DNA of 18,920 bases, taken from assembly GCA_005779305.1 (NCBI GenBank), contig SXJR01000061.1, forward strand, positions 1 to 18,920, written 5' to 3'. The position numbers and the translations under genes were made by a program. The stretch's first letter is position 1; the number at the start of each line of letters is the position of its first letter. Shown piece after piece: positions 13,617 to 13,693 of this stretch. A model generated the notes under the pieces. The model ran no database searches. It had not been told where the DNA came from and saw only the letters and a list, made by a program, of their open reading frames with translations. The DNA comes from Myxococcales bacterium (GTDB lineage: Bacteria; Myxococcota_A; Polyangia; Haliangiales; Haliangiaceae).

Positions 13617-13630
13617 CTCCGCGCATCCTA

Positions 13631-13684
13631 TCACGCCGGTCACGCCGGTCACGCCGGTCACGCCGGTCACGCCGGTCACGCCGG

Positions 13685-13693
<9 letters not shown>
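13631..13693. repeat. Perfect 9-bp tandem repeat, tcacgccgg x 7 (minus strand: ccggcgtga x 7).
   Basis: Units start at 13631, 13640, 13649, 13658, 13667, 13676 and 13685. The unit at 13685-13693 (first in the minus-strand reading direction) supplies the last two codons and the TGA stop of the photolyase gene. Every further unit has an in-frame TGA. The array fills most of the 68-bp spacer before the lipoprotein ATG at 13616. Confidence 0.95.

Follow-up and report, generated by a model that had tools for sequence, protein, structure and literature searches.

Does the perfect 9-bp repeat that separates a photolyase gene from a lipoprotein gene act as a genetic switch, or is it an ordinary variable repeat lodged between two cistrons? 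The question is raised by a stretch of 18.9 kb of DNA (the window, which here always means the whole stretch analysed) from an uncultured soil-type myxobacterium. The original prediction placed the repeat at 13617-13693 and regarded it as a candidate contingency or phase-variable element acting on the spacing of the two genes, or else as a protein-binding array.

Direct reading of the sequence revealed a single perfect tandem array of seven TCACGCCGG units on the plus strand at 13631-13693, with no partial units. The predicted seven identical copies and the minus-strand unit CCGGCGTGA were both found, while 13617-13630, which had been counted in the span, is a unique 14-nt spacer and not part of the repeat. 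TRF described the array with period 9, 7.0 copies, a score of 126, 100% matches and 0 indels. All seven occurrences of the 9-mer in the window fall within the array; dinucleotide shuffles yielded 0.82 matches on average and 4 at most, and none of 200 shuffles reached 7, so that head-to-tail repetition of this short unit goes beyond chance. When run on 85 other photolyase loci (577 kb, 64% GC), TRF detected no perfect array with a period of at least 6 and at least 5 copies. The array is real and rare. The coordinates of the features are collected in Table 1.

Table 1. Features of the photolyase-lipoprotein junction in the window, array alleles by assembly and examples of arrays of the same unit in metagenome contigs.
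Feature	Position	Strand	Remarks
DUF4336-like gene, first of the co-oriented cluster	15184..15801	-	Stop overlaps photolyase start by 4 nt (GTGA)
Class II CPD photolyase gene, 500 aa as called	13685..15187	-	GTG start; TGA 13685-13687 is the end of repeat unit 1
CCGGCGT, exact reverse complement of unit core ACGCCGG	13695..13701	.	1-nt gap to array
Perfect tandem array (CCGGCGTGA)x7	13631..13693	-	Coding strand; TCACGCCGG on plus strand; direct reading, TRF
Seven GTG codons, one per unit, in lipoprotein frame	13632..13688	-	Translation of ORF 13062..14288
Unique 14-nt spacer TAGGATGCGCGGAG	13617..13630	-	SD-like AGGA 9 nt ahead of ATG
Cys-rich lipoprotein gene, 184 aa	13062..13616	-	ATG 13616; signal peptide with lipobox LAAC
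Peptidase M50B-like gene	12256..12990	-	71 nt past lipoprotein stop; conserved partner of lipoprotein gene
Array allele, window			7 copies; direct reading, TRF
Array allele, ENA ERZ27257035 (L001)			7 copies; MEGAHIT k141
Array allele, ENA ERZ27257034 (L002)			7 copies; MEGAHIT k141
Array allele, NCBI GCA_005801925.1 (L206)			8 copies
Array allele, NCBI GCA_005793525.1 (L209)			8 copies
Metagenome array, L112	2969-3049	-	
Metagenome array, L130	887-940	-	
Metagenome array, L141	651-713	-	
Metagenome array, L103	7259-7294	-	

The gene upstream of the array encodes a class II photolyase, as indicated by full-length similarity to solved structures (PDB 2xry and 8oet, E about 1e-66, residues 16-497 of 500 aligned). 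Against TIGR00591 (phr2) the protein gave E = 7e-101 and 338.8 bits, a score under the curated cut-off of 550 of that model. Hundreds of its homologues are named deoxyribodipyrimidine photo-lyase, the closest ones coming from Kofleriaceae MAGs. The ORF ends in ...DGYLARYAGPA*, and its last codons CCG GCG TGA are unit 1. This is in agreement with the original prediction, according to which the first unit supplies the last two codons plus the TGA, each later unit re-supplies a TGA in the photolyase frame, and the C-terminus is indifferent to copy number; ORF translation and direct reading gave the same picture, and the protein has 500 aa in the 7-copy and in the 8-copy alleles. In public gene calls four genes are co-oriented, namely those for the DUF4336-like protein, the photolyase, the lipoprotein and the M50B-like peptidase. 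A terminator scan returned no terminator-like sites between them, and the cluster may well be co-transcribed.

The ORF that opens at ATG 13616 begins MRTRGLIGVVVGLSLAACGG. Its N-terminus, MRTRGLIGVVVGLSLAAC followed by GG, was read from the sequence as a signal peptide ending in a canonical lipobox of the L-[AS]-[GA]-C form, as is expected for a bacterial lipoprotein. Precomputed annotation of the homologues places the protein in family PF28386 (BfoA_C); a Pfam profile search with the protein itself gave no match even at E<=1, so this assignment comes solely from the precomputed tables. A literature search for 'BfoA' retrieved unrelated papers only. The SD-like AGGA at 13629-13626 and a GGAG at 13620-13617 precede the ATG, as had been noted, and the photolyase stop lies 68 nt ahead of it.

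A feature absent from the original prediction is that the first in-array GTG (13688-13686) overlaps the photolyase TGA as GTGA, with a spacing of -4. NTGA is the commonest stop/start junction in prokaryotes, according to a review (PMC12548453). In the frame GGC GTG ACC the array reads (VTG)6-VIGCAE and then MRTRG, and the translation of ORF 13062..14288 runs ...VTGVTGVTGVTGVTGVTGVIGCAEMRTRG... across it. The GTG of every unit is in the lipoprotein frame, so gene callers start the downstream gene inside the array. The public calls begin at the first array GTG and give 208 aa in 7-copy contigs and 211 aa in 8-copy contigs (L001 7500-8126, L206 5240-5875, L209 877-1512; 13062-13688 on the minus strand of the window), the miscalled length tracking the repeat copy number. 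All 53 homologues of the lipoprotein aligned to the 184-aa part only, lacking the VTG extension, and most of them have 178-198 aa. ATG 13616 is therefore the family-typical start, and from these alignments the (VTG)n extension would be spurious or at most optional. Exact-sequence look-ups of the lipoprotein at 184 aa and at the predicted allele lengths of 193-217 aa gave no match.

The locus was recovered from other assemblies using the neighbouring proteins as exact-match handles. Five assemblies, including the window, carry it; they represent the same Kofleriaceae-like population, with flanks about 99.9% identical, and all units are perfect in all five. Seven copies were found in three assemblies and eight in two, between near-identical flanks, so that the predicted length variability is real at this locus. 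The stop-to-start distance moves in 9-nt steps, as had also been anticipated, from 68 nt with seven copies to 77 nt with eight. Some 21 scattered SNPs over roughly 11 kb were counted among the five consensus sequences, none of which co-segregates with the copy-number allele; 7 sites distinguish the two 8-copy contigs. One length change compares with about 0.1 point differences expected in 63 bp, which indicates that the array is more mutable than ordinary sequence. Nevertheless, only two adjacent alleles were observed against these ~21 SNPs, which is not what is expected of a saturating hypermutable locus.

The call of seven versus eight copies was made from consensus assemblies; the assemblers behind the two GCA records are unspecified and perhaps different, and the read sets perhaps overlap. 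It could be argued that the array itself, or the difference in copy number, was generated by de Bruijn-graph loop resolution. In line with this, the Logan (k=31) contigs from SRR8894382 and SRR8894379 stop exactly inside the array (L210 1-47 and L211 1-37), keeping 3 and 2 units, respectively, which makes them uninformative on copy number; assemblies of this kind break at perfect 9-bp arrays that exceed k, and the count is lost. Such an artefact is, however, highly improbable. The array was recovered in five independent assemblies and is therefore itself no product of assembly. The two ENA MEGAHIT assemblies carry contigs named k141, and a 141-mer covers the 63-72-bp array together with flanks; two independent assemblies agree on eight copies, and the window and both ENA assemblies on seven. 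Since a 141-mer spans the whole array and a collapse would lower the count and not raise it, the polymorphism is regarded as real.

Among the loci recovered, the photolyase-lipoprotein junction is shared within the closest clade only. No array was detected at the corresponding positions of the sister species L219, L005, L003/L004 and L218, so the unit repetition is not conserved in related species. This agrees with the recent origin that had been suggested, and the homologous array in relatives that had been named as counter-evidence was not found at these four junctions. It follows that the array arose after the split from the species at about 81% photolyase identity. Together with the lack of any comparable array in the 577 kb, this marks it as a young, lineage-specific VNTR. 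More distant homologues were uninformative for the junction: the lipoprotein gene was absent next to photolyase homologues of 49-67% identity at 80 genome loci, and synteny was absent at homologues of 72-75% identity.

In L219 and L005 the photolyase stop (TAG) lies 4 nt before the first in-frame lipoprotein ATG (M-x-A-M-x-x-R-G-L), and in L003/L004 a 62-nt spacer unrelated to the array intervenes. The stop-to-start distances of 4, 4 and 62 nt in the photolyase-bearing relatives suggest that this distance is unconstrained. In the alignment of the junctions (A1), conservation in the form TA[CG][CG]ATGC..G..ATG..CCGGGG.CT starts precisely where the array ends on the right. The TAGGAT of the 14-nt spacer aligns with the TA[CG][CG]AT of the four sister species, and the ATG at 13626-13624 is out of frame in the window but in frame in the relatives, owing to a 1-nt insertion in the window lineage that frameshifts their first ATG. 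The element TA[CG][CG]ATGC is found 7-8 nt ahead of the lipoprotein ATG in five species, non-coding spacers and a photolyase-less genome included (window 13617-13630, L219 767-782, L005 3144-3159, L003 7601-7616, L218 2487-2503). Its sequence would suit the opening codons of an MxAM... N-terminus or, alternatively, the -10-like element of a leaderless transcript.

L218 has no photolyase at the locus. In this genome (GCA_947483555.1, 1728-3052, corresponding to window 13062-15801) the lipoprotein is 73% identical, and a gene of 238 aa lies upstream of it in the position of the DUF4336-like gene. The photolyase has thus been gained or lost as an insert, the lipoprotein/M50B/VIT-domain cluster being conserved apart from it.

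The exact 27-mer (CCGGCGTGA)x3 was also present in at least 120 unrelated JGI metagenome contigs. A scan for this 9-mer unit alone, in which 80 of these loci were read (L086-L165), revealed arrays of mostly 3-4 copies, with a maximum of 9, in unrelated flanks. The contexts range from long ORFs in the TPV, GVT or HAG frames (collagen-like, Pro/Thr-rich and His-rich tails) to intergenic DNA. About a dozen of roughly 75 arrays seem to start at or just after the TGA of an upstream gene, as in the window, with gene ends called from a codon-position GC heuristic and stop-to-stop ORF lengths only. A dispersed or mobile element family was considered and rejected in view of the unrelated flanks, the mostly 3-4 copies and the spread over three coding frames and intergenic DNA. 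The unrelated flanks and many contexts suggest instead that slippage or codon repetition acted independently on a favoured high-GC triplet of codons.

A phase-variable element changes a reading frame or a promoter spacing when its length changes. Neither was found here: the unit length is divisible by 3, the array is situated outside the ORFs typical of the families, and a consensus scan showed neither a sigma-70-like hexamer pair straddling the array nor a terminator. The proposed contingency function was therefore not borne out. An Rfam scan of 12800-14400 at E<=1 returned no match, and the predicted RNA fold of the junction was no better than that of shuffles (z = +0.6). The modelled energy for opening the region from the SD to position +9 was 12.0-14.4 kcal/mol over 1-15 copies and showed no trend, the values for seven and eight copies being 12.80 and 13.05 kcal/mol. 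Since the array is strictly periodic, a factor anchored at either edge sees the same sequence at any copy number; its length can be sensed only by an interaction spanning the whole array. The locus looks like an ordinary intercistronic VNTR and not a genetic switch, a reading for which no support was obtained.

This classification agrees with the comparison with known repeat systems. The three defining features of VNTRs that were tested (head-to-tail copies of one short unit, polymorphism between close strains and absence as an array from related species) are all present, and the array is a member of the VNTR/SSR class. With the intergenic VNTRs of bacteria used as MLVA loci it shares perfect short units arranged head to tail, polymorphism between close strains, absence from sister species and a slipped-strand origin, and nothing essential differs. 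What is particular here is that the unit spans an NTGA junction, so that every copy provides the upstream gene with a stop and the downstream one with a start codon in its frame. MIRUs are dispersed elements of 40-100 bp, present at many loci, with small ORFs of their own. The array resembles them in being a tandem, copy-variable repeat between co-oriented genes, with the -4 overlap (GTGA at unit 1, GTG in the lipoprotein frame). It is nevertheless no MIRU, because its unit has 9 bp and it occupies a single site within the 18.9-kb window, having come from local duplication; the other occurrences of the 27-mer have unrelated flanks. By analogy, it would work most like a miniature MIRU situation of intercistronic repeats coupled at -4. 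A MIRU carries a reading frame joined to the adjacent gene by -4 coupling (NTGA), an arrangement that keeps its influence on expression to a minimum (PMC12548453).

The (ATCTTTC)n repeat of Haemophilus influenzae hmw1A/hmw2A is a graded, phase-variable SSR of an adhesin gene, of which about 10 repeats pair with a G-rich arm to form a 5'-UTR hairpin cleaved by RNase III, and expression falls as the repeat number rises (PMC12721329). Both are repeats upstream of a surface-protein gene that are transcribed and change length in whole units. In contrast to hmw, the array has no complementary arm, no significant fold and no modelled start-site accessibility that depends on copy number. No long complementary arm of the hmw1A type was found nearby, other matches being of 71-82%, as is typical of GC-rich DNA; only a 7-nt complement adjoins the array. 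In Mycobacterium tuberculosis, another high-GC bacterium with variable tandem repeats upstream of genes, promoter repeats (dop, lpdA, efpA, glpD2) differ in copy number among populations and also inside single ones (PMC12817950). There, promoter strength shifts as promoter elements are duplicated, whereas the scan showed no promoter within or spanning the array. With the in-frame (Gly-Val-Thr)n, (Thr-Pro-Val)n and (His-Ala-Gly)n coding repeats of high-GC genomes the array shares its 9-mer, which in the at least 120 metagenome contigs is often repeated within long ORFs in these frames. The array in the window, by contrast, is not part of the coding region typical of the family, and a TGA closes its first frame.

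Taken together, the array is probably a young, lineage-specific slippage VNTR that drifts between seven and eight copies and persists in a position buffered on both sides. Replication slippage, its likely origin, would have duplicated 9 bp spanning the photolyase stop codon, and repeated duplication would have stretched the junction, 14 nt long with one unit, to 68 or 77 nt. On the upstream side unit 1 already terminates the photolyase, so that copy number cannot change this protein, and a read-through ribosome would meet a further TGA every 3 codons. On the downstream side the lipoprotein keeps its own start region (TAGGAT / AGGA, N9, ATG) within the unique 14 nt. The sole repeat frame with start codons (GGC GTG ACC) is in phase with the lipoprotein, and stray in-array initiation would thus produce an in-frame extension of a cleaved signal peptide and not a junk peptide. 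It is because of this buffering that the array would persist and drift in copy number.

Slippage may be helped by the CCGGCGT next to the array. Any unit can pair with it, and together they form a 15-bp palindrome, ACGCCGG-N-CCGGCGT, at the array edge. The single-stranded DNA folds modestly better than shuffles (z about -2), and this 7-nt inverted copy of the unit core could favour slipped hairpins. A different 7-nt inverted repeat, GGTACGC/GCGTACC at 13608-13614 and 13698-13704, encloses the array and the lipoprotein start codon. A long-range stem around the AUG could form from it; the minimum-free-energy folds do not use it, and such pairs are common in GC-rich DNA.

The array is presumably near-neutral. 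Its location directly upstream of a gene for a surface-type protein argues against neutrality, this being the classical place for phase-variable repeats. The array has also widened a junction that in two relatives measures a tight 4 nt, and it has created a -35-like gTGACc, which may be functional, at a 16-nt spacing ahead of TAGGAT. Translational coupling can weaken as the distance grows (PMC12548453), and some quantitative effect on lipoprotein output is therefore possible.

Such an effect could arise on a single mRNA if ribosomes leaving the photolyase either scanned to the distant AUG, with a coupling that declines as copies are added, or reinitiated at the GUG of the GUGA overlap, with each unit adding Val-Thr-Gly to the signal-peptide N-region; output or export would then be tuned by copy number. 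The GTGA of unit 1 does bring an in-frame GTG that gene callers choose, the upstream gene pair uses the same -4 overlap, and the +4 spacing in relatives suggests ancestral coupling. NTGA junctions are reported as the commonest, with scanning ribosomes choosing the nearest start and coupling depending on distance (PMC12548453). Moreover, the SD/AUG region has a strong structure in the model, its opening taking about 13 kcal/mol, and could therefore depend on ribosomes arriving from upstream. Against this tuning stand the missing extension in all 53 homologues, the lack of an SD ahead of the in-array GTGs, the unrelated 62-nt spacer tolerated in L003, the -4 geometry that is identical at every copy number and an observed difference of one unit only. 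These points make it rather unlikely. The narrower proposal that the array is a variable-length lipoprotein leader, in which reinitiation at the GUG gives a (Val-Thr-Gly)n N-region and copy number tunes export, lipidation or coupling, is quite unlikely.

Transcription could be affected if TA[CG][CG]AT were the -10 of a leaderless or near-leaderless lipoprotein-M50B transcript and the array donated the -35-like element; at least 3 units would then create or strengthen an internal promoter, and extra copies would have no effect. The T, A, A and T of TAnnAT are invariant in five species, including a non-coding spacer and the photolyase-less L218, the motif is kept in the window even though the first ATG of the relatives is out of frame there, and GTGACC, 16 nt and TAGGAT can be read directly in the sequence. 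However, the pair matches the consensus at 8 of 12 positions only and the consensus scan gave no sigma-70-like site; in four of the five species TAnnAT is equally explicable as coding (MxAM...), and the relatives have no -35-like element at the corresponding position. This supply of a promoter is very unlikely. Neither it nor the ribosome-based tuning predicts a difference between seven and eight copies, save via leader-peptide length or scanning distance. As for a regulator that recognises the repeated 9-mer or the edge palindrome in the manner of iterons, the identical, regularly spaced sites and the 15-bp palindrome would suit it. CarH/LitR-type operators are 11-bp repeats containing A/T and bear no resemblance to the unit. 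The binding-array function proposed originally is nonetheless contradicted by the absence of the 9-mer from the rest of the window and of the array from all sister species found. In addition, consecutive sites, being 9 bp apart, do not fall on the same face of the helix, copy number varies freely, and at such GC a 7-bp inverted repeat is estimated to occur by chance several times per window. This function is thus scarcely credible, and the buffered slippage VNTR is preferred over all these readings.

As a slippage VNTR, the array offers a strain marker, seven versus eight copies, for following an uncultured Kofleriaceae population across metagenomes. A repeat built by duplicating an NTGA stop/start junction leaves the genes on either side unharmed, which may explain why such arrays can survive at gene ends. 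The array also misleads tools: gene callers add 24 or 27 VTG-repeat residues to the lipoprotein, and assemblies with k=31 break. Tuning of lipoprotein output by copy number would, if true, mean that SSR tuning of surface proteins is not confined to host-adapted pathogens but reaches environmental myxobacteria as well, although nothing supports that yet.

A second, degenerate repeat was observed elsewhere in the window. It is G-rich and GGTGGCGGATGACGG-like, with three longer copies at 8650-8736 (plus about 8610-8650) on the minus strand, directly 3' of the stop of a 334-aa gene (8738-9742, minus strand). TRF reported a period of 7/34 with 72-82% matches, and the repeat is followed by a GGGGTGACG...CGTCACCCC hairpin. 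From its sequence, this region may be a terminator or a G-quadruplex-prone spacer.
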